A DNA stretch of 64,000 nt from a virus (taxonomy: Duplodnaviria > Caudoviricetes), in IMG/VR virus record IMGVR_UViG_2645727545_000002, positions 32,001 through 96,000 of that record; one strand, given 5' to 3'. Below, in pieces: positions 444 through 45,542 of the stretch (the first letter of the stretch is position 1; each line of letters starts with the position of its first letter). The notes below the pieces were generated by a model, which worked only from the letters and a program-made list of their open reading frames with translations, ran no database searches and was not told the DNA's origin. The position numbers were made by a program, and so were the translations under genes.

Positions 444-611
444 ATTATTTACCTCCTACGAAACGAAAGTTTCATCTTAATATTTTTCTAAATACTGCAT
501 ATAGCGGTGACACCATATGCAGCTAAATTTATTTACGTTTTCTTCCAAAAAAGAACCCAATGCAAGTTGCCATTACGATACACACAATAAATACCCATAT
601 ATTTAATACAA

Positions 612-1364
612 TCATTTATTACCTCTTTTTCTTTTCATTTCTTCAATTGTTTGTCTTGCATTTCGTTCTCTCTCGCTTGCTTCAAGTCTCATGTCTTGAG
701 CTTGTACACTGGAGTCAAAAGCAATTCTACTTCCTTCTGCTCTTCGCCTCGTTTTCTTGGCTCCTTCTCTGACTCTCTCTAGCATTCTTTCACTCTCATT
801 ATTCATATTCATACTGTCCATACTTTGATGGAGTTCAATAATCTGACTATCTGCTTCCATCTGGAATAAAACCTGTTCTTTTTCCTCTTTTAATTTCTGA
901 AGATCTGAACTTGCCTGATTCCTAATTTCTTCCTGATGCATTTTAGCTTGTTTCATTTCTTCTATCGTATCTTTTAATACCTTGATTTTGTTCTCTACTG
1001 TTTCTTTTTTCATAGCATATTGCATTGCAGAATTTTCATCATTATTATCTAAACATGCGTTAATTTCTTTTGTGATACGCATAATTTCTTTATTCGCATT
1101 GTATAAATCCTTTTCTGCGCTGTCTAATCTTCCAGAAATCTCCGCATATGTTGTAGATGCTTTATTATAAAACTCTTCTTTATCACGAATAGCTGCATTG
1201 TAATAATCTTTTGCCCCTTCTGGAGTAGACGCATCTTGTCTCATTACTTCGTCTGTTCTTCCTTTTAATTTCACTCTTAATTGTTTTCCAAACGAAGAAT
1301 TTAAGAAAATAACGACTAAAATAACAACGATTGCAACCAATACAATAAACATAAAATTTGTCAT
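612..1364 (-). CDS. PspA/IM30-like coiled-coil protein with N-terminal membrane anchor
   Basis: Hydrophobic N-terminus then ~220 aa charged coiled coil; at the distal end of the Ter operon. Confidence 0.55.
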   Translation of the reverse strand: MTNFMFIVLVAIVVILVVIFLNSSFGKQLRVKLKGRTDEVMRQDASTPEGAKDYYNAAIRDKEEFYNKASTTYAEISGRLDSAEKDLYNANKEIMRITKEINACLDNNDENSAMQYAMKKETVENKIKVLKDTIEEMKQAKMHQEEIRNQASSDLQKLKEEKEQVLFQMEADSQIIELHQSMDSMNMNNESERMLERVREGAKKTRRRAEGSRIAFDSSVQAQDMRLEASERERNARQTIEEMKRKRGNK

Positions 1365-1376
1365 ATACTTATTCTC

Positions 1377-1957
1377 CTATTCAACATCAATTCCGTATGT
1401 GCGACATAACGCTTCAAGCCCACCGTTATAACCACTTCCAACTGCTTTAAACTTCCATTCATTGTTGCGTCTATAAATTTCTCCAACAACAATCGCTGTC
1501 TCAGTAGAAAATCCTCGCTCAAATCATATCTTAATAGCTGTTCTCCTGTTTCTTCGTCTAATACTCTGATGTACGCATTTTCTACCATTCCAAAATTTTG
1601 TAACCTGTTGTTTGCATCATAAATTGTTACCGCAACGGATATTTTTTCACTATTATTCGGCAAATTCTGAAGATTTACTTTAATTACCTCATCATCACCT
1701 TCTCCATCGCCAGTTCTGTTGTCACCTGTATGGATGACACTTTTGGTTGCGTTTGAAAGGTTTCCATAAAACACAAAGTCCTTGTCATTACCAACTTTTC
1801 CGTTTGCGCCTGTAATAAATATAGACGCATCTAAATCGAAATCAGATTCTCCATCATAATGATTTGTATCCCATCCAAGTCCAATAAGAAGTTTATGTAA
1901 TGATGGTCGATCTTTTGTTAGATCTACTCTTTGTCCCTTCTCAAGATTAACAGACAT
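1377..1957 (-). CDS. terD: TerD-family stress protein (1-nt shift near 1510)
   Basis: [35 protein letters not shown]; alternative frame restores [20 protein letters not shown]. Confidence 0.9.
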
Positions 1958-1974
1958 TTCTCGCACCTCATTTC

Positions 1975-2546
1975 TTATCTGTAATTTTCTGTTAATTCGC
2001 TAATACTTTTATCTGTAGTTCCTGTTCCAATAGCATTGAATTTCCACTCATTATTCTTCTTATACAATTCTCCAAAAATCATTGCAGTTTTACCAGCGTA
2101 ATTATCGGACAAATTGTATCTACAAATTTCATTTTTGCTAGACTGATCTACAATTCTAATAAATGCATTTTTAATCATCCCAAAATCTTGTTTTCTTGCA
2201 TTACATGCATAGATGTTAACTACAAATACAATTTTACCAACATTTTCTGGAATATTTTTAAGTCAACTGTAATCTGTTCATCATCTCCGTCACCATTTCC
2301 TGTCAAGTTGTCTCCATGATGTAAAATGCAACCATCACTTGACCGGCGTGATCCGTAATAAACAACATCCATATATTTATCTTCGTTGCTTAAAACAATT
2401 GCTGAAGCATCACAATCAATATCATGTGTTCTACCAAACAATCCTTTTTTCGCCGCATCCCAACCAAGACCCACAACTACTTTCTCAAGACCATTTACTT
2501 CTTTTGATAAACTGATTTTCTGACCTTTTACTAAATTTACCGACAT
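1975..2546 (-). CDS. TerD/TerZ-family protein (split into ORFs 2220-2585 and 1975-2178)
   Basis: GLGWD, DCDASA, GDNLTGNGDGDDE, then [15 protein letters not shown] in the next frame. Confidence 0.85.
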
Positions 2547-2577
2547 ATTCTTATTCTCCTTTTTAATTCTTTTTCTT

Positions 2578-3156
2578 TTATACATTCAATCCAAAGTTCT
2601 TTGCAATAGCTACAAATCCATCATTATATCCGCATCCAATTGCGTTAAATTTCCACTCTCCATTTTTACGATATAGCTCCCCAGCAACGATACCTGTTTC
2701 AAGAGAGAAATCTTCATCTAATTCATACTTAAATAGTTCTTCATTTGTATCAGCATCATATGCTCTAATATATGAATTGGACACCATCCCAAAATTCTGA
2801 AGCCTATCTTCGGCGTTATAAATTGCTGCAGCAAAACTGATTTTTTCAATATTCGATGGAATCTTATTCAACTCTACTTTCATTGTTTCGTCATCGCCAG
2901 CTCCTTCGCCGGTTCTGTTGTCACCAGAATATACAACTGCTCCACTTAGATGACATGGCTGGTTATAGAAAATAAAGTCCTGTTCACCAGTTACTTTACC
3001 GTTTACATCTGTTAAAAATGCAGATACGTCAAGATCAAATGGTGCATTCCCATCATATTTGTTCGTATCCCATCCTAAACCAAATACAACCTTTTTCAAT
3101 CCGTCATTTCCTTTTGTTAAATCAACTTTCTGACCCTTTACTAAACTAATTGACAT
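2578..3156 (-). CDS. terD: TerD-family stress protein
   Basis: [46 protein letters not shown]. Confidence 0.92.
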
Positions 3157-3172
3157 ATTCATGTTCTCCTTT

Positions 3173-5773
3173 TTAATTATTTGTTTTTGTAACTGCTTTT
3201 CTTACTAAATCAACTGGTATTACCATAAACGCAAGAACTACAATAATTAACCAATGATTGAAATCTAACGGTGTTACCTTAATCAATTCACCTGCAAAAT
3301 TGCAAAGTACTACTGTAATCATAAAAATGCTAATTGCGATATATCCAAATAATTTATTTTTTCTAATTCCTTTTAATAGATTGAAACTATCTGTTCTAAT
3401 ATTAAATCCGTTAAACACTGCCATAAAACATAACAATGCGAATCTCGCAGTCATTGCCTCTACATCTGTTGAAAACATTTTAGAAATAGGACTAAGAATG
3501 ATTACTCCATATAATGCAATAAAAGATATTGTACTAACTGCAATTCGTGTTTTGGCTCCCCTTATAAATAATCCGGAACCTTTTTTAATTGGCTCTTCAT
3601 ACATGTATTCTTCTTTTGGTGGCTCTCCTCCAAAAGAAAGTGAATTCAACGAATCCATAATAATATTTACAATAAGAATCTGTACCGATGCTAGTAATGA
3701 TCCAACTGCTACAATCGGATACAACACACTCAAAATAAGTAAAGAAATGTTGATCGGTAACTGGAACTCTAAAAACATCATAATGTTGTGCATAAATGTT
3801 CTTCCTAGTTCTACCGCTTTTACAACTGAAGCAAAATTATCGTCTGTAAGCACAATGTCTGACGCTTCTTTTGCAACATCGCTTCCTGTTTGCATTCCAA
3901 ATCCAACATCAGAACGTTTTAATGCTGGCGAGTCATTTACCCCGTCTCCTGTCATCGCAACAGATCTACCAATCTCTTGAGCTAAAGTAACAAGTCTCAA
4001 TTTTGTATTCGGAGAGCATCTTGAAATTACTCTCAATGATGGGATAATTTCTTTGACATCTTCATCACTCATATTTTCGAATTCATCATTTGTGAGAGCT
4101 ACATCACCATCTTTGTAAATTCCGCATTCTTTTGCTACCGCAATTGCAGTTTCAATACAATCTCCTGTAATCTCAATAACTTGAATACCAGCTTTATGTG
4201 CAATATTCACTGCGTCTGGAACCTCGTCCCTAACAGGATCAACGACTCCAATAATACCAAGTAATGACATATCTTCCGGTAGTTTATTCTCTTCTAACTT
4301 TTCATTTTTAGAAGACAACGCAATACATCTCATAGATTTCGTTGTCATTTCTCTAAGTTTATTCTGAATCGCTTCTTTGTCCTTAGATGTAAAAGATTTT
4401 CTATTTCCTTCCTCATCAATCATAAATGAACACTTTTCAATAATTCTCTCAGGTGCTCCTTTATAATATGTAAGGTTGTCCTTTGTAGTAAACGCTGAAT
4501 ATTTATTACTACTGCTAAACACTTGCTTGTCCAACATTTGAATATTCTTATTAATATTTTTGTATTCATCTGAATTAACTAAGGACATCATGGCTCTATC
4601 GATTGAATTTCCACCAGTGATCATCCCATCTTTGTCAAATGTAGAACTGTTGTTCAAAACAATGTTGTTTTTCATTTCATTCCACAATTTTGAATTCATA
4701 TCAATTTCTTTTGTATTTGAGCCAATAATTGTCTTTGGAGTCATAACACCTGTTGTCAATGTTCCCGTCTTATCTGTACAAATAATGTCAACATATGCTA
4801 ATTCAGGAATTTTACCTGGATTCTTGGCAAGGATATTGAACTTCTCCATTGTTTTTACGTTCTGTTTGGTAACAAGTTTTACAATTAATGGAAGTCCTTC
4901 CGGAACTGCAGCAACAACAATGGTTAATGCAACTGAAAAATTCTGTGCAAATTTCTGAATTAAATTGAAAATGTCATCCGAAAAATATTTTGAAACACCA
5001 ACTTCCATAATTCCAGAAACGGTAAGAACAATAAACGTAATTGATGCTGCAATCGTTCCCCACTTAGAAATAAAGCCACTTAAATTATCTAACGCAATAT
5101 CAAGAGCTGTTTTAGGAGCCTCTAGTGTTTGCATTTTTACCAATGTATCTCCATTGACTGTATTTACACCAACATCTGTGACAATCATTTTTCCTTCGCC
5201 GGACATCACGGTTGTTCCTGCAAACAAACAATTCTGATTTGTATACGCATCTGTCGATGTTGTTTTCTTATGAATATATCCATCAATCGGCGTTTTCTTA
5301 CACTCTTTTGTTTCTCCATTAATTGCAGCATTGTTAACTGAAATTTTACCTTCCATAAGATATCCATCTGCAAAAATCTCTTGTCCCATTCCTACACAAA
5401 CAACATCTCCCACAACCAATTCATCTTTATTGATTGTTTGCAATTGACCATTTCGTATTACATCACAATGCCTAATAGATGTTTTTGCTCTTAATTCTGC
5501 TGCTGATTTTTGTACACCCAACCCTGTCTTAACCGCGATACAAGTTACAATTGCAAGAACAAAGATAATCATAAGCGGTTCAGATAATTCCATTACACCT
5601 AAAAACCCCAACACCATTTGCAACATGGCAATTGCAATTAAAATCATAGTGATTTTTTCACATAGAGCATCTTTTGCAAAATGATACCATTTTTTTAATT
5701 TCGGTTCTGGTAATTTATTAGAACCGTACTTTTCTCTGTTTTCAACAACCTGTTCATTTGTTAATCCATTCAT
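3173..5773 (-). CDS. P-type cation-translocating ATPase, type II (Ca2+-like)
   Basis: PEGLP, DKTGTLT phosphorylation site, KGAPE, TGD, GDGVND, multiple TM segments. Confidence 0.93.
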
Positions 5774-5774
5774 A

Positions 5775-6325: not shown

Positions 6326-6411
6326 TCTTCTATCCTTTCTATTCTATCTGTTTTATAATCTCTATAACAATATGAGTCAAAAAATAATAAAGCCTTCACA
6401 GACTTAAATAT

Positions 6412-8436: not shown

Positions 8437-8768
8437 ATTTCACCTACTTTCTAAGAAACCTATACGGATCTCCAATTCCACATAACTTTACAATCTCAAT
8501 AGCAATATTAACTGGAATATAAACAGTTTCATCCATTGAATTATCTCCGCAAATATATTTTCCATTTAATGCTGCGTATAATCGTAATTGCTCAATAACC
8601 ATATCCATGTCAAAAGCTACCGGCTGCTCTTGATTCCGCTTTCATTTCATCAAGTTCTTCTTCTGATAGCTCGTAAAACACCTTAGAACTAACAATATTT
8701 TTCTCTATCTTTTTCAAAACAAAAATTACCTCAACATACTATTTGAAAATTGTATTTTATCAGTCATA

Positions 8769-14942: not shown

Positions 14943-15365
14943 TCCATTTCCTCATTTGTAAATGTAATCAAGTAATCATTTTGCATACATCTCTTGCCAC
15001 AATTACAATGTTTATCTCATTATTATCTTTGCAATACAAGATTCTGCTATCTTTTCTGCAGATCTTAGCAGTTTTATCAATAACATATCTGATCACGTCG
15101 TCAACTCTTTCCTGAGACATATCCCAATTTCCTTCAAATATGGTTCCTGCCAACAATTTTGATACAATCCATAGCAACAATAGCTCCATTCAGCCATACA
15201 CGAATGCTTGTATTGCTTTAGTAATTTATGTAATGTATTTTTTGATAAATGCTTAAACTCATAGTCACGATTAAAATCCTTTGAATACTGATCTTTTGCA
15301 TGTAAAAGTAGTTTATACCTGTCTTTTTTCTTCATTATTTCTCCTTTTGAAATCACAGTTTCATA

Positions 15366-20261: not shown

Positions 20262-20484
20262 ATATTAGTTCTCTCTTTCTACGTTTGAAATTCTGCTTTC
20301 ATTATTTAACTAAGTTATCAATATTTACAGAAAATCCATCAAACTTTCCTGTTAATAAATATTTCTTTGTATCAAAAACATTATTTTCTTTTCTGATAGC
20401 CCCATAGAAACACCATTATCTATCAATGATTTTCTCAATAAATCCAGAACAATTTGCAACTGCTCTTTTGTATCTTCTGACATG

Positions 20485-23343: not shown

Positions 23344-23591
23344 TTGATTTACCTCTTTTAATATTAATCACATCGGTATTTACAATCTTATATCACATGC
23401 AGCTCACAAACATTTTCAAATAGCGACAAATGAAATAGTTTGTTGAATCAACGTTTACAGTTTCTAAATATTTGATTTACTTTAGGTGATATTTGATTAT
23501 AAACACCAATGAAAAATCATATGCAGAACTTTATGTATCTTATTTTATTGGAGTCATGAAACATGTATAGGAAATTGTTCCGCATATGAAT

Positions 23592-23660
23592 TATGGATAA
23601 AGGATTTGAACCTTTTCTAATGCGTCACGCTTCATCGTGCTACCAGTTACACTAATCCAC
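23592..23660 (-). pseudogene. Degenerate tRNA-like element
   Basis: Acceptor GTGGAT/ATCCAT, D arm GTGT-AACTGGTA-GCAC, T arm AAAGG-TTCAAAT-CCTTT, but no canonical anticodon arm. Confidence 0.45.
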
Positions 23661-23817
23661 AACTTTTAGGATGGAAAATAGGTCATCACCACTTAAGAGA
23701 CATGTTTACACCATAAAAATTTTATTATTAAGGAAATTAAAACAAATATGAATATCAAAAAATTAACAAGAAAAGACTATGCAGCAAAGATGAATCTTAA
23801 ATTAGTAATGACCTAAA

Positions 23818-23889
23818 TGGATCATTCGGGACTTGAACCCGAACCGATCGGTTATGAGCCGATTGCGCTCACCATTGCGCCAATGATCC
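23818..23889 (-). tRNA. tRNA with CAT anticodon (elongator Met or Ile2)
   Basis: GGATCAT/ATGATCC acceptor, GCGC D stem, ATCGG-CTCATAA-CCGAT, TCGGG-TTCAAGT-CCCGA; G1:C72 so not initiator; CCA not encoded. Confidence 0.92.
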
Positions 23890-25210: not shown

Positions 25211-25308
25211 TCATCTATTCTCCTTCAAATTTTTATATGCCATATATAGTATTTAAACAAGTTGCAAACTACTATATATTGTGCTAAATTCCGAATGAAA
25301 TCGAGATT

Positions 25309-26348
25309 TTAACTTGATAATATCTCATCTATCATCTTATCCATCTCATATGTAAATTTGACACAATTACCATGTGAAATATGATTCTTCCAAGATTCAT
25401 AAGATTCTAGGAATTTTCCTTTTGATAACTTATTCTCTTTTACCATCTTTGCCATTTTTCGATATTTTCTTTTTCGCTTTTTCTCTTTTTTTCATTTGTA
25501 AGTTTTCTAATTACTTTTCCATCTTTTGTGACATATGTATGAAAACCACAAAATTTAATTCCGTTTTTAAAAGGTATAATCTGAGTTTTGCCGTTCAATT
25601 CAAGATTTAGTGTGTTTACAAAATCTTCTATTGCACACAAACAATATTTTGCATATTGCTTTGATTCCACAATTAAATAGAAATCATCCATGTATCTTCC
25701 ATAATATTTGACACCCAACTCTCCAGTTATAAAATGATCAAAACCAGACAAATATAATAAAGCAAATACCTGACTAACTTGATTTCCAAGAGGCAAGCCA
25801 TTTCCGCTTGTGCTATCAATAAATTTTTCACATAACCAGTACGTATCTGGATTAGATATAAAATATAAAACAATATCTTTCAGAATATTATGATCAATAT
25901 TATAGAAAAATTTTTTAATATCACCTTTAATAATCCAACAATCATATCCGTATTTCTGATATGCTAAATACATTTGATATTTCAGACAATCCAAACCAAA
26001 CAATGTTCCTTTTCCTATTTGTCCGGCATAATTCGTATATATAAATTCATTACTTAAAATAGGAAGAAGCACATTATCACATAAACTGTGCTGCACAATT
26101 TTGTCTTTAAAACTTCCTGCTTCTATAATTCTCTCTTTCGGTTCATATACTTTAAATCTGTTATATCTATCTACTTCATATTGCTTTGATTCTAAAAGTT
26201 TCTTAATTTGATAAATTCCATCAAGAGCAGATAATTCAAATTTAATTCTACTTTTCGTAAAACCTTTGCCACTTTTTGAATCTCTGTATGCTTTATATAA
26301 ATTTTCAAAATCAATAATCTTATCAAAAACTGTGCTATCTTTTATCAT
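25309..26348 (-). CDS. DGR reverse transcriptase (A-run shift near 25480; true stop at 25309)
   Basis: KERII, DKIVQH, GKGT, GDIKKFF, GLPLGNQVSQ, RYMDDF, FCGF; alternative frame adds SYESWKNHISHGN typical of DGR RT C-termini. Confidence 0.95.
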
Positions 26349-28610: not shown

Positions 28611-30074
28611 TTATCCTACAAGTTCATACTTGTTCCTTAAAAATTCACCAATATCATTTACCATGTATGTATAATTTTCTTTTTGATCTTTAATATATGT
28701 AGAATTTCTGTTAAAGAAACTTACCATCCACTCCGGAATTTCTAAATCTATGTTTGTTTCAAAGCTGTACGCAACAACAGCAAGTAAAGAATTCATGTTT
28801 TCAGGTTCAAGAAGTTTCGATGAGTTATCAACCTCTACTGTCCAGTCATCTAACTGAATTTTATATAATTCGATGTCTTCATCAATCACATCTTCTTTAA
28901 CATTTTCTTTGATAAATTCAAGAGCGTTCTGGTCTGAAGAAGCATTATCTATTACATTATTCTCTCCCACTTCGACAAGACATTCTTCATCTTCTTTAAT
29001 ATGTAAATACTCTTTCATGAGAGCAGTTAAGATGTTAATTTTCTCTTTTAAAATAGCCTTACCTTTTGTATGACGATCCTCATTTAATTTGTCAAATGTT
29101 ACTCCATTTACATCTTTTTTATATAAAGACTTTTCAAATTCTTCTACAAAATCCTTAAACTTAATATCATCTAATCCAAATTTAGCAAACTCTTTAAACA
29201 CAGGGATCCAAACAATAACATTTTTTGGCACAAACACTTCTGTGAAATTATCTTTGCACACAGATTCAATCCTGCTAAAATATTCATTTACAGTATCAAA
29301 GTGTTCTTCCGTTGCGTTCTCATTTAGATATTTGCTCATGTTCTTTATTGCACTTTTCCAGTTATCAAAGAAAAACGTTGTCATGACAGATTCACATACA
29401 AGTCTTTCTCTAATACCTTTCGATTGCTGCTTACCGGAACAAGACATACAATTTTTAAAGAATTTATTTTTCTCAGATATTGTCCTTATTTTTCTTGCAT
29501 GTAAATCAATATAAGTAAATGCTTTCTGAGATGTATTCATTCCCAAATGATTGTTGTATCTTCTCACCAATTTACTAATCTGTGACATCGTACAATGCTG
29601 ATGTATTGTAATGTCAATCTGATAATCATCAAACATTTTTTTCAATTCTGGCGGTAACATTTCATATGTTTTTCTTCTCAAATCATATTCAACAGATTCC
29701 CAAATAACTTTTCCGTATTCATCTTTACAGATTTTATTATTTTCATCTTTCTTTTTTCTCTGATATTGGATAATCGGATCTTCTAAAGTAGCTGTAATTT
29801 TATAGTTTTCATGCTTAAATTTAACCAACGCAGAACTTCTTTGCATTCCATCAACAATGTATTGCTGCACAACGTCTTCGTCCAAATCTTCTTCTCCTAA
29901 GATAATTGGTGGAATATAATCATCAGTTAATACAGTTTTGATTAACTCATTCACCATTCCATTTTCCCAACAAAACAGTCTTTGAACGTCCTGATTATCA
30001 CTAATATCTTCTTCCACAATCTTCTCTAAATAAGAATCTAGCGATAATGTCTTTTTTCTAATTTTCTTTGCCAT
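28611..30074 (-). CDS. DUF262/ParB-like domain protein
   Basis: QR..W, IPPIIL, IVDGMQR. Confidence 0.7.
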   Translation of the reverse strand: MAKKIRKKTLSLDSYLEKIVEEDISDNQDVQRLFCWENGMVNELIKTVLTDDYIPPIILGEEDLDEDVVQQYIVDGMQRSSALVKFKHENYKITATLEDPIIQYQRKKKDENNKICKDEYGKVIWESVEYDLRRKTYEMLPPELKKMFDDYQIDITIHQHCTMSQISKLVRRYNNHLGMNTSQKAFTYIDLHARKIRTISEKNKFFKNCMSCSGKQQSKGIRERLVCESVMTTFFFDNWKSAIKNMSKYLNENATEEHFDTVNEYFSRIESVCKDNFTEVFVPKNVIVWIPVFKEFAKFGLDDIKFKDFVEEFEKSLYKKDVNGVTFDKLNEDRHTKGKAILKEKINILTALMKEYLHIKEDEECLVEVGENNVIDNASSDQNALEFIKENVKEDVIDEDIELYKIQLDDWTVEVDNSSKLLEPENMNSLLAVVAYSFETNIDLEIPEWMVSFFNRNSTYIKDQKENYTYMVNDIGEFLRNKYELVG

Positions 30075-30892: not shown

Positions 30893-31099
30893 ATGTTTTC
30901 ATACAAACCTTTGCTGAAGCTGCTTATTGATAACGACTTAAGCAAAACTCAATTTCGTTTAGAAACCGGAATAAGTATGGCTACATTAGCCAAGATTGGT
31001 AAAGATGAATATATTTCTATGTCCACTCTTGACACCATTTGCAAATATTTCGATTGTAAAATTGAGGATGTAGTCAAATTTATCAATGATGATAAGTAG
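30893..31099 (+). CDS. Cro/C1-type HTH regulator
   Basis: SYKPLLKLL..ISMATLAKI..ICKYFDCKIEDVV; RBS AGGAGG. Confidence 0.88.
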   Translation: MFSYKPLLKLLIDNDLSKTQFRLETGISMATLAKIGKDEYISMSTLDTICKYFDCKIEDVVKFINDDK

Positions 31100-33283: not shown

Positions 33284-33649
33284 GTATCGTCTTACATATA
33301 TTTATTACATCTTTATTATTTCTTTAGCTTTCCTAGCTGCTATATCCCAGTTTACTTCTATCCCGGAACCAATGCTATACCATGTATCTTGGCTTTCACT
33401 GTACTGCAACACATTCCAACACCATAAGTTTGACTTTTCTTTGTGCGGTTCTAAAACTACTTTTCTCATAACATTTACACCTCCCAGATGAAAGTTAAAT
33501 TCTATTTATATTTATATGTTGATAATTTCGACATCCTCCTTTGGAACGGTATGCCAATCGTCATAGAAGTAAATATATAATAAATCTGGATTAGGATGTA
33601 CTCTATACGCAACATATTTATTTACTTCTAAAATCCCAAATTGTTGTTG

Positions 33650-33855
33650 ACCTCATAAATTATCAAAATACTGATTTACTTGCCTGTCTCTGAATTGACC
33701 TGTATACTGTCATCAGCATACAAAAAGGAAAAAGGTCTCAGAGCACCCTCCTGGAAACAGGCGGTATTGCCTAACTGACTGGTGACAGAAAGTTAAGCAA
33801 GTGAGCGTCAACTGATGTGAGCAATCTGGTGACAGCTCATGAAATCACTAACACC
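33650..33855. mobile_element. 203-bp structured non-coding insertion with ACC direct repeats
   Basis: Removal restores minus-strand ORF MVKKCLLKRF-G-QQQFGILEV...; GC-richer, GNRA hairpins. Confidence 0.6.
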
Positions 33856-34699: not shown

Positions 34700-34727
34700 T
34701 ATATTACCTCCTCATTTGATATAAAAC

Positions 34728-35438
34728 TTAGAATTCAACCGGATTTTTTAATTTAACAAACTTATCTCTATTTTCCACAAGAGCAGCTTGAGCAATGCTA
34801 TTAATCTTATTTTGACAAAACGCCTCGATCTCTCCTTTTGCTTCAAGAGCTGTTCTATCCATCTGTTCATCAAATTGTTCAACACAAAAATCTAAATTAC
34901 TTCCAATATTATATTTTACTTGTCTAAGTTGCGAAATAATTTCCTTGCGGTCTTTAACTCCAAGATTCTTTTTGTTGTCAATTGATTCCTGGATCTGATT
35001 TATTTGAGCTTGAACCTGTTCCATTGCTTTTGATATTGTATTACTAAATTCATTTCTAAATTGTTCTCTTTTCGAGTTGTTTTCTTTGATATAAGGAATA
35101 TTTCCGTCTTTTTCCGTAAATCGAATTGTACATGGAACTCCATCACCAACATTTAATGTAGAAATGCATTCTGCGAATTGAGAATAACTCATTTCTACCT
35201 TTGTTATTAAGCCACAACCATAATACCAATCATCATGTAAATGTCTGTCCTGTTTTCCATGTTTTAATGTCATAATAATTCTATCATTATGTTTAATACT
35301 ACTTCCAAATAGTGTGTTTTCTCCACCACTTACTCTTGAAAACCCAATCATTCCAAACGCAGGATGTTTAAATGTTTCTCTTTCCAAAGAAGCTCCCTGT
35401 TTCTCTACTGTTCTTTCTATTTCTTTATATTCAATCAT
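34728..35438 (-). CDS. Hypothetical phage protein
   Basis: HPAFGMIGFSR..LFGS..VEMSYSQFA..GDGVPCT conserved-looking motif. Confidence 0.7.
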   Translation of the reverse strand: MIEYKEIERTVEKQGASLERETFKHPAFGMIGFSRVSGGENTLFGSSIKHNDRIIMTLKHGKQDRHLHDDWYYGCGLITKVEMSYSQFAECISTLNVGDGVPCTIRFTEKDGNIPYIKENNSKREQFRNEFSNTISKAMEQVQAQINQIQESIDNKKNLGVKDRKEIISQLRQVKYNIGSNLDFCVEQFDEQMDRTALEAKGEIEAFCQNKINSIAQAALVENRDKFVKLKNPVEF

Positions 35439-35713
35439 AATAATCTCCTTTATATTCTTCCATAATAATCAATCCTACATTTCTTCCATTTCTTTTTACT
35501 TTAATAAACATCTTTTTCCGGAGTATTTTATTACAGTTTATACACCTTCGTCTTCTACTACAAAATTCTGTAATATCTTCAGAAGCTCCACATGGCTCAT
35601 CATTGTAATCAAAAAGCAAATCTCTAATTACTCTTTCTGTTATATAGTATCCCTTTTCTGAACCACAAAACGGGCATATTTTTTGTTCTTTCATAATTCC
35701 TCTTCACTTGAAA

Positions 35714-36808
35714 TCAATCTTTCAAACCATTTAATATTTCCAATCGTTTCTTGAACATTCCAACATATTCCGGGAAATATTCAAACCACTCATAATTCAC
35801 TTCTTTGATTTGATTTAATCCAATTTTTCCAACAGCATACAATGCAGCTTCTTTCTGGTTGACCTTTTTTCCGAAGCAAGTCTGACAATTAGAACCTTCT
35901 ATTCCATCATATGAGTTAAACGTCTTATTAAAATCCATCAGCGGATGAAGTGAAACTGGCTTGTTGTTTGCATTATTTACCAGAACTCCCCAGTTTCCCC
36001 AATGACGATCGGTATTTCCTACAAGATAGTCAACGATGTTCATCATATAATAATCATGTTTATCTAGCGACAAAATATATTTACGGATATTTCGATCATG
36101 GTTCTGTGAATAAATTTCAAATGCTTCCATAGACACAATGGAAAAGTCCTTTGATGTGATATTTTCACTTATAGTTACCGGTTCTTCAGCAAATACACTT
36201 CTGTTGTATATGACCTGCTTTACATCAAAACACTGACAAATTTTACTTGATAGAAGTTCCTTCTCGACAACTTCTATCCCTCCGTCTTTCAACAGAGAAA
36301 ATCCTTTTTCTGTCCGTTTCCAGGCTTTTGGGAAAACACCATTCGTAGATAAGTCTTTCGCCAGATCTTCATTATTTACCGTATATTGTTTTCCTCGCAG
36401 AGCAATATCTATAAAAATATTTTCAAGATGGTTATCATATAAATTGACTTCAGAAAATGTTATCTTTTCACCTTTATTTCTTACCCAGAAAACATCTGTC
36501 AATGATGTACACCTATATGATAACGCCACTTTTGCTCTATCCTTGTCCGTTACAGCCTGATTCATTCCTATACTGTTCAAAATTTCTTTAGCGTATTTTC
36601 TATCCAATGTGAGAACTCTTGTTGCACACCAATAATTGAAATTTGTAATATTATTAACAAGAGTATCAACATCTTCTTCTTCTTCAAGATATAGGTTATA
36701 CGGCATAAAACTTTTGTAATACACCTTACATCTTCCAGAAGAATCAATTCTTGCAACTCTTCTATCTTTATGCATAATTTCAAAAATATCGCTGTTCATA
36801 TTATACAT
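35714..36808 (-). CDS. HipA-like kinase
   Basis: STNGVFPKAW, DYLVGNTDRHWGNWG, PLMDFN. Confidence 0.8.
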   Translation of the reverse strand: MYNMNSDIFEIMHKDRRVARIDSSGRCKVYYKSFMPYNLYLEEEEDVDTLVNNITNFNYWCATRVLTLDRKYAKEILNSIGMNQAVTDKDRAKVALSYRCTSLTDVFWVRNKGEKITFSEVNLYDNHLENIFIDIALRGKQYTVNNEDLAKDLSTNGVFPKAWKRTEKGFSLLKDGGIEVVEKELLSSKICQCFDVKQVIYNRSVFAEEPVTISENITSKDFSIVSMEAFEIYSQNHDRNIRKYILSLDKHDYYMMNIVDYLVGNTDRHWGNWGVLVNNANNKPVSLHPLMDFNKTFNSYDGIEGSNCQTCFGKKVNQKEAALYAVGKIGLNQIKEVNYEWFEYFPEYVGMFKKRLEILNGLKD

Positions 36809-37186: not shown

Positions 37187-38187
37187 TTACAAATCAAGTA
37201 CAGCATCTGCTATAGTAGATTCATCCATGTGTACATAGTATCTTGCTGCTGTTTCCAAATTCTTGTGCCTTAATTGTCTTTGAACAAGAACAATATCTTT
37301 TGTTTCTTCATACAATTTACTTCCAACCCAATGTCTTAACATATGTGGGTAAATTTCACCTTCCGAATATAAATTAAAAAACCCTGTAATTGCACCTTTA
37401 CTTAATCTGTTATTTTCATTTGATAAAAACAATGCATTATCTTTAATTTTTCTCTCTGTTACGAAAAAAGTTCTAATTTTCAAATACTCCTCAATATTCA
37501 TTCTAGCCTGTTCAGACATATAAACTTTATCATATTCTTGTATATTTCCCTTTCCAAGAATCATCATATACGGTCTTTTTTCTTCGTATAGATGTAAATC
37601 GGAAATATCCATATTTATTAGCTCTTCTGAACGAATACCACTTCCTTTTATAAGTTGAACAATGGCAATATTTCTAATAATATTAAATTCATTTTTATTT
37701 CCATTCTGTGATATTTACTAAGAATTTTTCCACTTGCTCATCTGTAGGGATTTCTACTTCTTTATATTTTTTTTCAGATTTATATAGATTGCCAGGTATA
37801 TGTGAAATCACATTATCATCGACATATTTATTTTGTCGTAAATAATTCCAAAAAGCACTGAATACATTCTTCTTTGTATTGATAGAATCCAGTGAATTTG
37901 TTCTTCCTAAAAATCCATTTTTTAATTCGTTAAGATATTTAATAAGATTATTACTAGTAATAATCTGCATATCTGTTTCATTGATTTCTGCTATGCTTTG
38001 TTTATTTATATATTTATTATTGATCATCCAATTAAGCATGTCTCTAATATATATCCAATTAACTCTCTTTGTAGCCGCTGATTTATATCTATCAAAAAAA
38101 TCTGATATAAAATCAGGAATATCTTTTAATTCTTTTGCAAGTTTTTGTTTCTATTTTTTCTTTTGTTTTTCAATTTTTATAACACAT
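37187..38187 (-). CDS. Tyrosine recombinase (split in three by 1-nt shifts)
   Basis: RNIAIV..GSGIRSEEL (catalytic R), GKG, HMLRH, LRH, RYY; N-terminal core-binding domain. Confidence 0.88.
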
Positions 38188-39580: not shown

Positions 39581-39582
39581 AT

Positions 39583-39891: not shown

Positions 39892-39965
39892 AATTTCTTA
39901 CTCCTTTATTTCCTGCTGCCAATTCTTTTAATATTGTCATTTCTCTCTCAAAAGAAATGTGAATT

Positions 39966-40202
39966 TCATTCTGCTTCCTCTAGCTTAACCGCTACGAGTT
40001 CATCTCCTCTAAATGTTGTAAATCCAAATGTAAACTGGAAATTGTAATCTTCCCTAAAACCTTTTTTAATCATATCTCTTATATCTTTAATGGTTTTTTC
40101 AGTATCTTCTTTGTTGTCATCTTTTTCAAATATAATTTTTTCATCAATTACATTTCCATTTCTCAAATAAAATTTACCTACAATTGTTACTTCCTTATCC
40201 AT
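39966..40202 (-). CDS. Hypothetical protein
   Basis: RBS GGAGG; bracketed by junction motifs. Confidence 0.55.
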   Translation of the reverse strand: MDKEVTIVGKFYLRNGNVIDEKIIFEKDDNKEDTEKTIKDIRDMIKKGFREDYNFQFTFGFTTFRGDELVAVKLEEAE

Positions 40203-40247
40203 TATTTTTTCCTCCAATTCTACAATAAGAAATGCGACTTTCATTAG

Positions 40248-40490: not shown

Positions 40491-40847
40491 ACTATATAAA
40501 CCTCTTTTCTTGAAATACGAGTTTCAAAGAAAACCCATCAACTGATTTTCTAACATTTCTTCCAATTCATCATCTACACTACAATTATGATCACATTCTG
40601 GATTGCAGCAAACACACCGTACTTCTGGATAATGTTTGCATTGTCCTGTTTTATTAATATTCTTTCTATAACTTTTTCCATCTTTTTCGATTATTTGAAA
40701 AGCCATATTAAAAGCCCCCTTAGATAAATTTCCGATTTTATCTTGAGATACTATCCTTTGTAGCCTTCGTATTTACACAATAATCAACTTCAATTTCTGC
40801 CACTTCTCCGTCTTGTAAATTACTAAATACAGTTCTCTCATAATTAT

Positions 40848-41225
40848 CTAATGTGATAATTTTGTGATTTTAACAATCCCATCTTCGTTATATACTTTTA
40901 TTTTCATATCAAACCTCCTAATAAAATCCTGATTTCCTATTATTATTTTATTTTTAATTTCTGTTCCGCATATAGGACAGAATTTTACTTTATCCATATC
41001 TGTTCCAAAATCATAACCACAACAAGAAGTTACACCGTCTACTAGATATGAAAACTCATTCATTTCATTTGTTTCGAACCATGAATTTGTACAATTATAT
41101 GGTGCTTGTCTACGTCCTTCAAAAATATCATTCTCTACAATCTCTTCCGCTTCTTCTTTACTATTTGCTTCTACTTCATATGATTTGCTATATGTTTCAT
41201 AATAATCTACAATATATTTTGCCAT
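40848..41225 (-). CDS. Hypothetical protein (DpnD/PcfM-like N-terminus, zinc ribbon)
   Basis: YEVEANSKEEAEEIV; FCPICG. Confidence 0.5.
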   Translation of the reverse strand: MAKYIVDYYETYSKSYEVEANSKEEAEEIVENDIFEGRRQAPYNCTNSWFETNEMNEFSYLVDGVTSCCGYDFGTDMDKVKFCPICGTEIKNKIIIGNQDFIRRFDMKIKVYNEDGIVKITKLSH

Positions 41226-41237
41226 AATCATTTCCTC

Positions 41238-41597
41238 CTATAATCCCATCAAATCTTTTCCGACACTAACACCATAAGTTTCTTCAAACCACTCCCAAAT
41301 TTCCTCTCGGTGTGTTCCTGCGGCAAATCCGTTCCACTCTTCCTCAATACATTCTGTTTCAGGATTCATTGGAACGTCTCCGAATTCTAACCACAAATTC
41401 TCGATATATTCTGCACGCCTGTATTCAAAGCTATCGTTCAGACCACGATTAACGATACATGCTAAATCAGCATCTGTGATTAAGAATTTCCGTTCTGTGC
41501 AATAGTCCATTATCGCATTGTATTCCTTATCACAAAATTCTGTATCATCTTCAATCTGATCAATTTTCAGTTCTTTTAGATATTCTCTTAATGACAT
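41238..41597 (-). CDS. Hypothetical protein
   Basis: LW..FGDVP..F.AGTHREEIWEWFEE motif. Confidence 0.6.
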   Translation of the reverse strand: MSLREYLKELKIDQIEDDTEFCDKEYNAIMDYCTERKFLITDADLACIVNRGLNDSFEYRRAEYIENLWLEFGDVPMNPETECIEEEWNGFAAGTHREEIWEWFEETYGVSVGKDLMGL

Positions 41598-42519
41598 ACT
41601 ATTTTCCCTCTTTCCAATGTTCCATATCTTCATTTTTCAATGCGATCATTTCCAACATTTGCAGCGTACTGAAACATTCATTTTGTTTTAAAATTTCCAG
41701 TTCTTCTGTGATACACTTTACTTCTTCATCTTTGTATTCTAAAGAGTCCGCATAATCCATATCTAAAGACAGATTATATAATATTTTCGCAATTTTCTGT
41801 GTGTCCATGTTGTTTCCCTCTCTAAAATCTGTATTTCAATTAGAATCGCTTATTGCACACGAATCAGCTATGAAAAGTTTTCCATTATATATACTTGCAT
41901 TTGTATCACTGTCTTGATACATTCTTTCATTTTGAAAATCGTAATTACTATATCCCTCACAACAAACAAAAACTTGCGTATCGTCTGACATATCTTTAAT
42001 AAATTCTCTTAATTCCCCTACTGTCACTATTTTCTTATTTTCGTTCATAATCTTTCCATCCTATCATGTAAATTTTATAAAAATTCATTCCCGGTAATCA
42101 CAAGCAGCACATTATATAACACTCTGAAGCAATCCTTATTATATTCTTTCTGTGCCATTGCTTGTAAAAGTGTTACAACGCATTTTATTTGATGCTATAA
42201 TTTGCAGAATTCGGAAAATTAAAAACATCCCATTTTTAGCCTTGTTATAACGGTAATAATTTTTTCTATTACTGTTATAACAAGGATTCCGGGGGTTCGG
42301 GGGATGGAAGATCCCCGTATTATTTCTGCACTATTTATTTTTCTGAAAATGGCATATTATAATGTGCTGATCAACATAAAAGATCTAAACCATTTTTCAA
42401 TTCTTGTTTCAATTCTTCTGATCGTTCCAGATTAGATAATTCAATCAACTGTTCTACCACATCTTCAATGTCATAATATGAATTTTCTCTGTACTGCTTT
42501 AGTTCTTCCATAATCATTT

Positions 42520-42774
42520 TTATACTTTTTCACCTTTTCTTTCTAATAAGTTAATTCCTTTATCAAGTAGATAAAATGTATCTGCTTGAATTGATTTACA
42601 TCCTTTATCTACATATCCTAATTCACATAGTTTTATTAATTTTCTATATGTAGTTGGTCTTGATGTTTTTGTAATTTTCATAATTTCCTGAATTGTCATA
42701 CCCTCAATAAAATTAGTACACTCATTCTTTTTCAGTAACTTCATAATAACAACGTCTAATCTGCTAATTTCCAT
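42520..42774 (-). CDS. Winged-helix protein
   Basis: MTIQEI..SRPTTYRKLIKLCELGYV. Confidence 0.65.
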   Translation of the reverse strand: MEISRLDVVIMKLLKKNECTNFIEGMTIQEIMKITKTSRPTTYRKLIKLCELGYVDKGCKSIQADTFYLLDKGINLLERKGEKV

Positions 42775-43097
42775 TATTTCTCTACCCTTTTCACTTTATC
42801 GTTTGAAAGCGTTCTTTTATTGTGTTACTGGATATAGGCAATCAGATTATTTTCTGTTTCGTCTGCAATCTGATAATCTAACCACCATTCGTGTATGGTT
42901 TCTTCTAACTGTTCTTTAGATATTGTACGCTTTAGATCATCCACTTTAGGCTTTAATTTTTCCGTTTCATATTCAACTACGAGACGTTCCTGTTCTAACG
43001 TCATGTCATCGTATGTAATAGTTTTTAATAACGATTCAATTAGTTTTGTTTTAATTTCTTCCATAGTAATGTCTCCTTTCAAAAGATATAGCAGCCG

Positions 43098-44266
43098 TTA
43101 AGCTGCTCTATCAAGTTGTGTTTTAAAATTTTCAATATAATTTTCTCCAGCAATATTGATCGGAAGAATCAAGAAATTGTACCCGTTTCCATCAATGTAC
43201 ATTGGAGCATTTCCTTGGCTTCCTCTGAATACCGGATTCTCTGAATCAATAACTGATAATGCATCCATAAGATAATGTGAATTGAATCCAATAAATAAGT
43301 CCTCGTCCATTACAAGATTTTTCGTTTCAATCTCGTCAAAAGTTTGATATCTGGAAGTCTGCAAATATGTGTAAAGTTTTCCGTTCTCACTATGAAAGAT
43401 AGTAGGTTTCTTTTCTTCTTTTACCATATCTGCGTTATACTTCATAATTTTTAACATTTCTTCCCTATCAGCATTGAATACAAAATCTCTGCTATCGCAC
43501 AACATCTGTTCAATATTGAAATATTGTCCATCAATTCTTCTGATAACGTATGTAAAATCTTTTCCGGAAATTCTGATATATTTCTGATCCTGATATACTT
43601 TGACTCCCGCATCTGATTTTTTATCCATGATTTTCTTGAATACTGGCAAGCATTTCACATGGAGTTTTACAGTGTCAAATGGATTTTCCGTCACTGTTAT
43701 AATCTCCTGGCTATCAAGTGATCTCATCCCAATTCTGCGATTGTCCATAGCCTCTACACGCTTCCGCTTTGTGTTGAAGTTGAATACATTCAGCATTTTA
43801 TTAACGTCATCTCCTGTAACAAATAAAGAAAGATTGGCGATTGTTTCCAATAACCAACTCTCCGTTGTTGTAATAATGTGCGCTTCTGTATCATCCATTG
43901 CTGGAAGAAAAATATCTGTATTCGCATACCGTGGAATAGTAACAATCTTTTTTCCGCACTTTATGTTTATTCTCTGCTGCATTTCCGCGCTAACATCTTC
44001 CAGCGTAACATCTCCGCTCATTTTGGAAATGATCTTGATATCGTCAATGTCAATCCCCAAACGCCTGGACTTGTGTTCCATGTGTTGTCTGTCTTGACTT
44101 CTGCAAAATGTTCCATATCAGTTCCCCACATTTTCACCGTTCCATCTTCTTCGACCTGAATATATAACTTTTTCAAGCTGTCAAGTGTTGCTTTCTTGTT
44201 AATAGCTGCCATTCCTTTTCTCATAATTTCTTTTAAATCTTTTGCATTCATTGTAAATTTTAACAT
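43098..44266 (-). CDS. DNA polymerase III beta (sliding clamp)-like protein (split near 44060)
   Basis: WGTDME, AMDNRRI, RRIDGQY, IGFNSHYLMDAL, FLILPI. Confidence 0.8.
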
Positions 44267-44305
44267 TATTACCTCTCCTGCTCCTTATATAAAACATCAC
44301 TTTCC

Positions 44306-44593
44306 TTATTGCACGAATTCGATTTCCCACACATTAGATTGTTTGCAAACACCATCTTCAAATTTCCAATCAGAGGACTTTCCGTATTCTATCCAACTTC
44401 CTTTTCCATTGTTAGCTAATGTAATTTTGCTACCTGGTTTTCCATCTTCAATACTGTAAAATCCGTTTGTCTGTACTACATTCGGCTTTCTAATCTGCCC
44501 CTCACATTCTGATCTGATATAGTGTTTTCTAATAATAAATTTACGTCCCTCTTTGATTACTCTTTTTAACTGTGCTAAATTTTTAATTTCCAT
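44306..44593 (-). CDS. Hypothetical protein
   Basis: ORF with RBS. Confidence 0.55.
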   Translation of the reverse strand: MEIKNLAQLKRVIKEGRKFIIRKHYIRSECEGQIRKPNVVQTNGFYSIEDGKPGSKITLANNGKGSWIEYGKSSDWKFEDGVCKQSNVWEIEFVQ

Positions 44594-45017
44594 GTTTATT
44601 TCCTCCCAATAACTAATCCCTGTTACAATAATCTAAAAAAGCGCCTATTGTTTCTTCTGCTTCGCACCTAGTCAAATATCTTCGCTTTTTACTTTTCTTT
44701 CTATGTAATGGTAATCCACACATCTTGCGTTCATTATTTCTTAATAACATTTTGTCCGTTTTTTGTTTCTTCCTGGTATTTATGTTCATACTCATTTCAC
44801 CTCTTAAAATCGTGCTTTCATCTTATTTACATTTTCATACACTCAATACAATTTTCAGCAATGTTACTCTCTGTTTTCCACTCGTCAATTCCAATACAAC
44901 GATTTTCACATGTTTCTTTCTCGTTACAACAAATACAACATTTTTTACATTTATCATTTTCTGGAACTGATATATCAATTAAGCATCTAAGCATTTTTAC
45001 TACCTCTCTATTTAAAA

Positions 45018-45500
45018 TTATCTTTTCATAGGTATCAATTCATCTTTATCAGCCACAAATTGATTAGCATTTTTTCTGTCGTTACAGTTTGGAAAATCAT
45101 CAACAGACACTTTTACTCTATCCATTGTTTCTAGCCCAATAACAGTAACAATTTTCCCGCAATGAGGATGTTCTACTTCAACCTGCTTCGTTGCTCTATT
45201 CATAGGATGCCATATAAATTTCATTCCTTCTTTGTATTCCAAACCATCTTTCATGTACTCTTTGCCTTGCCACTTATCAAAAGGAGTCCAATCATTTACT
45301 ACAAAACCACATCCATAAAAAGAACCTTCTGATACAAGATAATAATTTCCAGCTTTGCATACTCCAAAATCTTTCTTACAATAAATAACTTCACTTCCAT
45401 CAATGAAAAAATATTTTTTTAAATCCTGATATCCATAATCTTTTCTTTTATTACTAAATCTATAGGAATTACATTTCCAATTTTTAAATCTTTCCATCAT
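45018..45500 (-). CDS. Hypothetical protein
   Basis: ORF with RBS GGAGG. Confidence 0.6.
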   Translation of the reverse strand: MMERFKNWKCNSYRFSNKRKDYGYQDLKKYFFIDGSEVIYCKKDFGVCKAGNYYLVSEGSFYGCGFVVNDWTPFDKWQGKEYMKDGLEYKEGMKFIWHPMNRATKQVEVEHPHCGKIVTVIGLETMDRVKVSVDDFPNCNDRKNANQFVADKDELIPMKR

Positions 45501-45542
45501 TATTTCCTCCTAATAAAATCATTATTTGTTTCCATAACATAC

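Follow-up and report, generated by a model that had tools for sequence, protein, structure and literature searches.

Slot-specific palindromes at the gene junctions of an SPbeta-like phage: possible operator-type linkers for the exchange of gene cassettes

Background

The mosaic genomes of phages have been ascribed either to special linker sequences or to random joins that are filtered by selection. Here we describe a putative compact linker, family-wide and with a position-specific centre, which bears on this debate. It is a 16-base palindrome, TGAAA-N6-TTTCA, found at gene junctions of IMG/VR virus contig IMGVR_UViG_2645727545_000002 (136,328 bases, estimated to be 81% complete, approximately 32% G+C), of which bases 32001-96000 were analysed; this 64,000-base stretch is referred to below as the window. 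The closest described kind of element is the promoter-early stem-loop (PeSL) cassette of T4-type phages (PMC2839356, PMC4122927). Like the motif, PeSLs are short elements reiterated in intergenic positions between an upstream stop codon and a downstream Shine-Dalgarno sequence, they cluster in hyperplastic regions where small genes without a known function abound, and related phages differ by insertions, deletions and replacements whose ends fall on them, as is also seen here. They have been proposed to steer recombination to harmless intergenic places, and the same may be imagined for the motif. Unlike the motif, a PeSL is about 100 bp long and contains both a sigma-70 promoter and a terminator hairpin that is stable and rich in G+C, whereas the motif covers 16-18 bp, shows neither a promoter signal nor a stable hairpin, and has a centre that is specific to the genome position.

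The site types that come closest are the stoperators of Cluster A mycobacteriophages (PMC3029335) and the ESAS repeats of Cluster K mycobacteriophages, whose function is unknown (PMC3203893). Stoperators resemble the motif in being short repressor-type sites, twenty to thirty-odd in number, which lie in the short intergenic gaps of a temperate phage and often at stop and start codons. They are, however, 13 bp long, asymmetric, oriented with transcription and bound by the immunity repressor, whereas the motif is a palindrome with two equivalent and independent half-sites. The ESAS are inverted repeats that immediately precede the ribosome-binding site in some of the genes; as with the motif, they are confined to the non-structural half of the genome, they precede unrelated gene families, and the departures from symmetry in their arms do not support an RNA hairpin. 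ESAS differ in having 17-bp arms, a variable spacer of 4-13 bp and a coupled 13-bp SAS that contains the Shine-Dalgarno sequence, while the motif has 5-bp arms, a fixed 6-bp spacer and no SAS-like block beyond an ordinary Shine-Dalgarno sequence. No link between ESAS and mosaic breakpoints has been reported, in contrast to the motif.

For a reading of the motif as a site-specific recombination site, the closest comparison is with the dif/Xer system and the pdif modules of Acinetobacter plasmids (PMC5357621, PMC6449649). Both have inverted arms around a 6-bp central region, and the arms of difH (AGTTATGAAAA) and difSL (TTTCCGAAAA / TTTTCTTGAAA) end in GAAAA beside the centre (PMC5357621), a suggestive likeness to the arms of the motif. 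Like the motif, pdif sites occur in large numbers in accessory regions, where they flank adaptive genes, with an Xer-like recombinase gene nearby. A dif-type central region measures 6-8 bp; in the motif the spacing is strictly 6, and the crossovers appear to lie within the central 12 bases. The Xer arms, on the other hand, are 11 bp long and asymmetric, with a XerC and a XerD half, compared with 5-6 conserved bp here, and pdif modules move between plasmids and positions whereas the motif cassettes stay in their slot.

Integron attC sites are 57-141 bp in length, are cassette-specific, fold as single strands with extrahelical bases and carry a GTTRRRY core. An integron shares with the motif array its mostly promoterless, co-oriented small genes, each with a recombination-type inverted repeat, and a tyrosine recombinase nearby. 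The motif differs from attC in its length of 16-18 bp, the lack of a GTTRRRY core, its slot-specificity and the absence of selection for pairing, and no attI/Pc platform was seen in the motif array. Heterospecific lox and FRT sites have identical arms and different spacers, and since only sites with the same spacer recombine, order is kept while contents are exchanged. These are engineered sites with 13-bp arms and an 8-bp spacer, and their likeness to the motif is one of logic only.

Occurrence and spacing of the motif

An initial annotation of the window, made from the sequence alone, listed 23 copies of an imperfect palindrome with a 6-base spacer, and the sequences given were found at all 23 coordinates. 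The over-representation of the palindrome, at about 20 gene junctions, is real and spacing-specific. GAAA-N6-TTTC was present 12 times in the window compared with 3.7 +/- 1.9 times in dinucleotide shuffles. Exact TGAAA-N6-TTTCA was present 10 times in the contig, where spacings of 2-5 and 7-10 bases gave 0-2 copies, as did reversed and everted controls, and the backwards control for the 16-mer was found once.

Related phages were represented by 20 IMG/VR contigs fetched with the sliding-clamp protein, which together with this phage gave 21 loci; gene calls were home-made. Upstream regions (-48 to -6) from these loci, 627 of them distinct, contained 26 exact and 51 one-mismatch copies at a spacing of 6, while every other spacing gave no exact copies and 2-15 with one mismatch. 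When all palindromic dyads of 4- and 5-mers with gaps of 0-12 were scanned without bias, this dyad ranked first (p ~1e-33). Over their full length the 20 related contigs had 31 exact and 171 one-mismatch copies at a spacing of 6, compared with 0-18 and 55-93, respectively, at other spacings. Four whole relatives had 3-12 exact copies (0-3 in the backwards control), and a 99%-complete relative had 54 copies, compared with 24-37 in controls. Copies above background number approximately 20-25 per genome. The positional enrichment over an AT-matched background on which the initial annotation had made its proposal depend is therefore strong, both by the spacing, reversed and everted controls and by the dyad scan.

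Because the motif carries only about 11 bits of information, weight-matrix refinement drifted to noise, and mismatch counts with spacing controls were used in its place. A search for 12-mer islands between unrelated flanks was abandoned, since chance repeats swamped it in DNA so rich in A and T. More distant loci from Lachnospiraceae, whose clamp is 28% identical, lacked the motif and were set aside as probable chromosomal dnaN regions. Literature searches with strings of the palindrome consensus found no paper describing the motif.

Anatomy and placement of the motif

Genes in the window are encoded on the minus strand up to approximately 59 kb and on the plus strand beyond, and the minus-strand (accessory) arm contains many small genes of unknown function. 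On this coding strand the geometry described in the initial annotation holds: an upstream stop codon is followed by the motif, then by 3-12 nt, a Shine-Dalgarno sequence and a start codon. The upstream stop coincides with the left-arm TGA in 17 of 74 distinct sites and falls within the spacer in 16; in the remainder it is mostly found 1-9 nt 5' of the motif. The logo built from these sites reads A/T, T, G (64) or A (10), and AAA on the left side, followed by five weakly informative bases and an A (74%), and on the right side TTT, C (52) or T (22), and A. In either arm the information reaches background after 5-6 bp. No copy shows extended dyad symmetry or has the long arms of a master site, and the half-sites are two 5-bp elements with centres 11 bp apart. 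In approximately 40% of sites the Shine-Dalgarno sequence lies 3 nt after the motif end, and in this close-spaced class a G(G/A)AG(G/A) block is seen three bases 3' of the motif. Start codons follow 13-17 or 20-24 nt 3' of the motif.

The well-placed copies lie between contig positions 30,978 and 77,013; in the arm of accessory and early genes about a sixth of the junctions have one, and the other arm is nearly free of them. Successive sites bracket single genes at 39.9-41 kb and 44.8-45.5 kb, as had been described. Of the 23 listed sites, 14 are within one mismatch of the consensus, whereas 7216, 9340 and 57913 are weak candidates. The weak sites at 33490, 34723, 40724, 40921, 44291 and 45515 are degenerate copies, which in relatives are either near-canonical or equally degenerate. 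At 63277 the palindrome is exact, but it belongs to the plus-strand arm and the next start is 110 nt away.

The motif as a DNA site

Positions 1 and 14 of the motif, which would pair in a hairpin, vary independently of each other (G/C 23, G/T 22, A/C 10, A/T 9; Fisher p = 1). Predicted RNA hairpins have energies of 0 to -3.7 kcal/mol, mostly within the range of shuffles, and two sites gave no fold at all. An Rfam scan returned no family matching the motif, but only a tRNA and a second tRNA-like match. Since the half-sites vary independently and the hairpins are weak, the motif is predicted to be a binding site in duplex DNA for a two-fold symmetric protein, and not an RNA structure. The initial annotation had offered an RNA-processing signal and a protein-binding site as alternatives to recombination; the absence of covariation and the weak hairpins speak against the former, and the latter is the reading that we adopt.

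Two further candidates were discarded. A terminator or other hairpin was rejected because of the weak folds. Promoters were rejected in view of the lack of sigma-70-like enrichment and because the close-spaced class leaves no room for a transcript start before the Shine-Dalgarno sequence. Contigs from RNA libraries that span several sites are uninformative on single transcripts.

Relation to SPbeta

Megablast of the phage against known phages gave no match, and its resemblance to Ruminococcus gnavus phages is limited to one 0.6-kb stretch; there is no close named relative. It has in common with Bacillus phage SPbeta a YonO-type RNA polymerase, the terminase (39% identity), homologues of YonG, YonJ, YonN and YorL, and a YomM-like protein, and on the basis of these shared proteins this large gut prophage is a distant SPbeta-like phage. 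The phage is temperate, since it is carried by an isolate-sized genome run, which contained 0.96 of the sampled phage words, and one of its relatives is classed as a provirus. Partial matches were obtained in other isolates and in gut metagenomes.

The SPbeta record contains 34 exact copies of TAAAA-N6-TTTTA, compared with 0-3 at other spacings, and these too lie after stop codons and before ribosome-binding sites. W-T(G/A)AAA-N6-TTT(C/T)A-W is a lineage-wide element of the SPbeta-like phages, a family that has the laboratory phage SPbeta at one end and, at the other, prophages of 160 kb in Lachnospiraceae-type hosts of the gut. Because the palindrome has been kept from Bacillus to gut Clostridia-type hosts, with lineage-specific arm variants, a conserved protein partner can be argued for.

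A repeated element of SPbeta has been published, SPBRE, which is bound by the master repressor MrpR, a protein with a tyrosine-recombinase fold but without catalysis (PMC10516654). Like the palindrome, SPBRE is a repeated intergenic element of the same phage family, and the case of its binder demonstrates that in these phages proteins with such a fold act simply as DNA-binding regulators. We extracted from the ten MrpR-bound promoters a shared core, approximately AATATGTATA. This is a different sequence from the palindrome, and MrpR/SPBRE was rejected as its explanation. SPBRE is also a 15-bp promoter-associated element with approximately 10 sites, and most palindromes are not near any of the 10 MrpR peaks. 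This makes the palindrome a second repeat family of SPbeta-like phages, and apparently an undescribed one. The two families are sometimes found side by side. In SPbeta (AF020713) a TAAAA-N6-TTTTA copy, for example at 76171-76186, lies about 25 nt upstream of SPBRE in the promoter region of aimR (yopK), and other palindromes precede yorE and yosX, which are also MrpR targets.

Exchange of gene sets at the sites

Homology breakpoints between related phages fall on the sites, as the initial annotation had predicted. When the 21 loci were clustered by gene family, the order of the sites proved to be constant, and every site had a 6-base centre of its own: AGATAA, GCACGA or GTGATG, GAACGC, TACAGA, TCAGGA, TCGGAA, CTCGTA, GTCGCA or GTTATA, and so on. 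Between these ordered sites are either conserved blocks or alternative, unrelated gene sets, and the sites delimit swappable gene units. Several left and several right flanks were recorded for 14 of the 34 spacer types, and a single spacer type was carried by 78 of 80 left-flank clusters and 84 of 85 right-flank clusters, although these counts overstate the number of independent events, as the related loci are not phylogenetically independent. The flank clusters being tied to one spacer type, the cassettes behave as alleles of a fixed position and not as elements that move between positions.

Comparison of the arms gave the place of exchange. In sets with a constant left flank the left arm varied in 4 of 23, the right arm in 14 and the spacer in 3 (p = 0.002), and in sets with a constant right flank the left arm varied in 11 of 16, the right arm in 3 and the spacer in 2 (p = 0.02). 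Because the arms go with their own flanks and the centre is common to both, exchanges resolve within the 12 bases of the central AAA-N6-TTT; the crossovers map between arm positions 1 and 14. Segment ends in blastn comparisons lay within 6 nt of motif edges at 95 of 845 starts and 78 of 814 ends, compared with 0-11 for spacings of 4, 5 and 8. Replacement joints were also located in independent sequencing runs of other studies, at 33499, 34724, 39970, 40914, 41818, 44820/44821 and 45011; of 20 joint ends in these runs 8 were within 8 nt of a site, and sites make up 2.6% of the stretch. One-sided homology was seen at 88% of motif junctions and 53% of motif-less junctions.

Only one join between different site types was found, in register, in which the left arm and centre of a GAACGC site (TAAAA-GAACGC) are joined to the right arm of a TACAGA site (TTTTA) with the loss of three genes. 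Several expectations of an integron-like mechanism fail: joins of different site types are limited to this one case, and the spacer is tied to the genome position and not to the cassette. What survives of the integron-like proposal is the delimitation of swappable units by the sites; the cassettes stay in their slot, the arms are of 5-6 bp, and motif-less junctions are mosaic too.

Mosaicism at gene boundaries is general in these phages, with or without the motif. At the level of gene families the difference in variability between motif and motif-less junctions was not significant, with small numbers. The cycle rank, a four-gamete-like count, was 3 in 110 motif edges versus 1 in 216, numbers that are again small and lend no support to a unique hotspot, and there is little strict evidence that reassortment was repeated. 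The intergenic gaps are so short that a breakpoint can leave the two genes intact only if it lies within the motif or next to it. Seven different downstream genes are joined at the degenerate site 45515, where the junction is between the Shine-Dalgarno sequence and the start, and not in the spacer.

Recombinase genes

The initial annotation had placed a tyrosine recombinase within the array, and the gene, here called Rec1 (Table 1), does match Pfam PF00589. It is intact in 15 related loci, and the full R-K-HxxR-H-Y set is readable in the 331-aa sequence. Sequencing run X1 differs from the window by indels at Rec1, so that the frameshift in the window may be an assembly error. The best solved relative of Rec1 is XerH (E = 7e-11), XerA and XerD also being found, and there was no integron integrase at E <= 0.001. 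Rec1 lies in the middle of the array; no obvious attI or promoter was seen there, and nothing dif-like was found beside it. Comparison of Rec1 with SPbeta YopP and YopR, and of its 361-aa neighbour with YopR and YopQ, gave no significant similarity.

Every relative examined has one or two PF00589 genes. A second tyrosine-recombinase-like gene of this phage, Rec2, is located outside the window (contig G000, 111392-112411; locus L043, 93-1112) and is homologous to SPbeta YomM, with 27.5% identity over 236 aa. Its C-terminal end lacks the expected catalytic tyrosine motif, and this may be another frameshift. Rec2, as a YomM-like protein, is a family-wide candidate partner for the palindromes. No large serine recombinase was found in four relatives at least 92% complete, and for this reason one of the two tyrosine recombinases is probably an ordinary integrase or resolvase; Rec1 may simply be the prophage integrase or a dimer resolvase that happens to lie in the array. 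Two exact sites flank a recombinase gene in relative G002, but both are inside open reading frames (ORFs) and were taken as uninformative.

Proposed role and alternatives

We infer that the palindromes are bound by a protein, that their first role is regulatory, and that the joins are made by general recombination without a dedicated enzyme. They would most likely serve primarily as operator-like sites, dispersed in the manner of stoperators or of the ESAS inverted repeats and recognised by a regulator that either the phage or the host encodes. Each copy would at the same time be an island of 12-18 bp of identity, with its own 6-base centre, between otherwise unrelated genes. When related phages or prophages meet, homology-guided exchange could resolve at the palindromes, and the outcome would be a series of addressed linkers that keep their order while the gene cassettes they separate can be interchanged, a logic similar to that of PeSLs. 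A generic mechanism would be enough, as motif-less junctions are often mosaic and one crossover lies outside the spacer. Several observations weigh against this proposal. An identity of 12-18 bp is very short for general recombination, and heterologous cassettes abut the motif edges precisely. No promoter signal was found beside the sites (68 promoter-like matches versus 69.5 in shuffles, and a flat upstream logo with no -35 or -10), so that there is no clear sign of a classical operator, and a role as a roadblock would be pure conjecture. The binding protein is a predicted partner, and MrpR, the known master repressor of SPbeta, binds a different element and gives 10 peaks in chromatin affinity purification sequencing (ChAP-seq) compared with 34 palindromes. 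Furthermore, the 5-N6-5 geometry, arms that resemble the inner arms of difH and difSL, and an apparently catalytically complete Xer-like recombinase in the array would fit site-specific recombination at least as well. On balance, the view that operator-like palindromes serve as addressed linkers at which short-homology exchange resolves, as with PeSLs, seems to us to have an even chance of being correct.

The sites may instead be true site-specific targets, whose inverted arms would be bound by a tyrosine recombinase, with strand exchange taking place where the 6-bp centre meets the arms; we regard this as a serious possibility, although an unlikely one. The candidate enzymes are the Xer-like Rec1, the YomM-like Rec2, which has its counterpart in SPbeta, and the host XerC/D, as at the pdif sites of Acinetobacter. 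It is proposed that identical centres would be needed, so that sites in one genome would not recombine with each other while equivalent sites of co-resident phages would, amounting to a natural spacer-addressed exchange of cassettes like that of heterospecific lox sites. An enrichment of inverted arms at the 6-base spacing only agrees with such an enzyme, but no more than 5-6 bp per arm are conserved, without extended symmetry, whereas the arms of Xer, Cre and FLP sites measure 11-13 bp. The invariant centre, with each arm going with its own flank, the almost exclusive exchange between same-centre sites, the in-register join of TAAAA-GAACGC with the TTTTA arm of a TACAGA site, and the heterologous cassettes that start and stop at motif edges are likewise expected of it, yet one crossover fell between the Shine-Dalgarno sequence and the start, and motif-less junctions are also mosaic. 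As for the enzyme itself, Rec1 has its nearest solved relative in XerH and retains R, K, HxxR, H and Y, the difH and difSL arms end in GAAAA, PF00589 genes accompany the motif in all relatives examined, and accessory genes flanked by Xer sites in large numbers have a precedent in the pdif modules (PMC6449649). However, Rec1 is frameshifted here while the sites are intact (possibly an assembly error, given the indels of X1), it has no significant similarity to YopP or YopR of SPbeta although the motif is common to both phages, and the four near-complete relatives without a large serine recombinase would need Rec1 or Rec2 for ordinary integration or dimer resolution. It is accordingly a tentative and rather unlikely suggestion that SPbeta-like phages carry a natural spacer-addressed cassette exchange, in which dozens of minimal core sites would recombine like with like and reassort genes slot by slot while gene order is kept. 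Should a recombinase prove to be at work, the exchange of cassettes by address would be of a natural kind that is new, and it might supply orthogonal sites for recombination.

Two readings without recombination were also weighed. In one, the motif would act in the mRNA as a small hairpin or signal 5' of the Shine-Dalgarno sequence; for some of the early genes it would be a site of processing, a 5' stabiliser or a translational operator. Its position 3 nt before the Shine-Dalgarno sequence in so many sites and its near confinement to the co-oriented operons of one arm would suit such a role, as would the excess of C-to-T changes in the right arm, which are compatible with G-U pairing, over G-to-A changes in the left arm (22 versus 10). 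This asymmetry, however, fits the G-rich, C-poor composition of the coding strand. There is no covariation, A-C mismatches being as frequent as independence predicts, the hairpins are mostly no better than those of shuffles, Rfam gave no match, and the authors of the ESAS study doubted hairpins by the same reasoning (PMC3203893); a function in the mRNA is therefore very unlikely. It is harder still to accept the pattern as a functionless by-product of AT-rich composition and of ATG-AAA (Met-Lys) starts read on the opposite strand, a reading that we regard as extremely improbable. The plus-strand TTTCAT does equal ATGAAA on the coding strand, a few matches are real start codons (24088, 8420), and the DNA is of low G+C content, but reversed, everted and other-gap controls of identical composition lack the enrichment. 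The ATG of the motif is almost never a gene start, the true start lying 13-27 nt further on behind its own Shine-Dalgarno sequence, and the element has been kept from SPbeta to these gut phages. Roles beyond those considered here are quite unlikely as well. Returning to the operator-type linkers, the accessory genes exchanged at them include candidate defence, repair and metabolic genes, and the tractability of SPbeta makes the binder, the regulation and the need for a recombinase directly testable.

Site coordinates and other features of the window

The coordinates of the sites and of the main genes are given in Table 1. The clamp module is bracketed by the GCACGA/GTGATG sites and the GAACGC site.

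Table 1. Palindromic sites and selected genes in the window (window coordinates; X7, X16 and X21 are independent sequencing runs of other studies, and L005, L018, L022 and L023 are related loci)
Feature	Coordinates	Strand	Remarks
Junction palindrome	459..474		1 mismatch; 15 nt before start of gene 3-443(-)
Junction palindrome	8744..8759		1 mismatch (TAAAA left arm)
Junction palindrome	15348..15363		Exact; upstream stop 2 nt before, start 12 nt after
Junction palindrome	20286..20301		Exact
Palindrome	25296..25311		1 mismatch; overlaps stop of small ORF downstream of reverse-transcriptase gene
Degenerate site, TTTAAC type	33489..33504		2 mismatches; recurs in degenerate form in relatives; X7 replacement joint ends here
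Degenerate site, TCTAAG type	34722..34737		2 mismatches; exact in L005 and L018; X7 replacement joint ends here
Junction palindrome, GATTGA type (coding strand)	35709..35724		Exact; upstream stop in spacer
Rec1, Xer-like tyrosine recombinase	37187..38187	-	Split by frameshift here; intact (331 aa) in relatives
Junction palindrome	39953..39968		1 mismatch; TGA is stop of gene 39966-40202; X7 joint at 39970
Junction palindrome, GTCGCA type	40228..40243		1 mismatch; 6 left and 4 right flanks in relatives
Junction palindrome, CTCGTA type	40511..40526		Exact; 3 left and 5 right flanks in relatives
Degenerate site, TCGGAA type	40724..40739		Precedes 60-aa gene 40524-40706; five left flanks meet its 5' edge in relatives
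Degenerate site, TCAGGA type	40922..40937		2 mismatches; X7 joint at 40914
Junction palindrome, TACAGA type	41823..41838		1 mismatch; partner of GAACGC site in the in-register join in relatives
Junction palindrome, GAACGC type	42804..42819		1 mismatch; after clamp module; five right flanks in relatives
Sliding-clamp gene	43098..44081	-	Conserved anchor for fetching related loci
Degenerate site, GTGATG type	44290..44305		2 mismatches; before clamp module
Junction palindrome, GCACGA type	44805..44820		1 mismatch; joints at 44820 (X16) and 44821 (X21)
Junction palindrome, AGATAA type	45013..45028		1 mismatch; 7 left and 7 right flanks in 11 combinations in relatives; X16 joint at 45011
Degenerate site, TAATGA type	45514..45529		3 mismatches; exact in L022 and L023; seven downstream genes follow
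P-type ATPase, NAMPT-like enzyme, GmrSD-like protein, reverse transcriptase		-	Named genes of the minus-strand arm
Sliding clamp, Y-family polymerase, HipA-like protein, tyrosine recombinase		-	Further genes of the minus-strand arm

The accessory arm encodes a reverse transcriptase (RVT_1, 25440-26348), a weakly GmrSD_N-like protein (28611-30074) and a weakly HipA_C-like protein (35714-36799), which are candidate defence or abortive-infection cargo of the cassette region. The two matches from the Rfam scan, a tRNA-Met (CAT) and a second tRNA-like match (Rfam only, 43.6 bits; not ARAGORN), are located at 23818-23889 and 23591-23661.

An intergenic stretch of about 200 bp at 42171-42376 coincides with contig ends and raised depth in runs X1, X16 and X21, with unrelated sequence on either side in each; it resembles a multi-copy element such as a miniature inverted-repeat transposable element (MITE) or the end of an insertion sequence (IS), and has a G+C-rich hairpin at 42298-42317. 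A second stretch, 33642-33853, has a depth of approximately 300-490 compared with 42 elsewhere in the phage, shows numerous loose contig ends in X1 and X7, and is probably another repeated or mobile sequence.

A UvrD-type helicase is present in two ORFs, 61306-62571 (N-terminal and first C-terminal parts) and 62606-63151 (remaining C-terminal domain). The split helicase, the split recombinase and many 1-base differences from X1 suggest indel errors in the assembly, or real pseudogenes. In related loci, for example at approximately 3700-4110 of L005, a conserved non-coding leader of 300-400 nt with promoter-like boxes lies upstream of gene families 51, 59, 67 and 84. This leader, which is absent from the window, contains the conserved block CTAGTCTATCGGTA..GATACTGA.. 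and may be a structured RNA.

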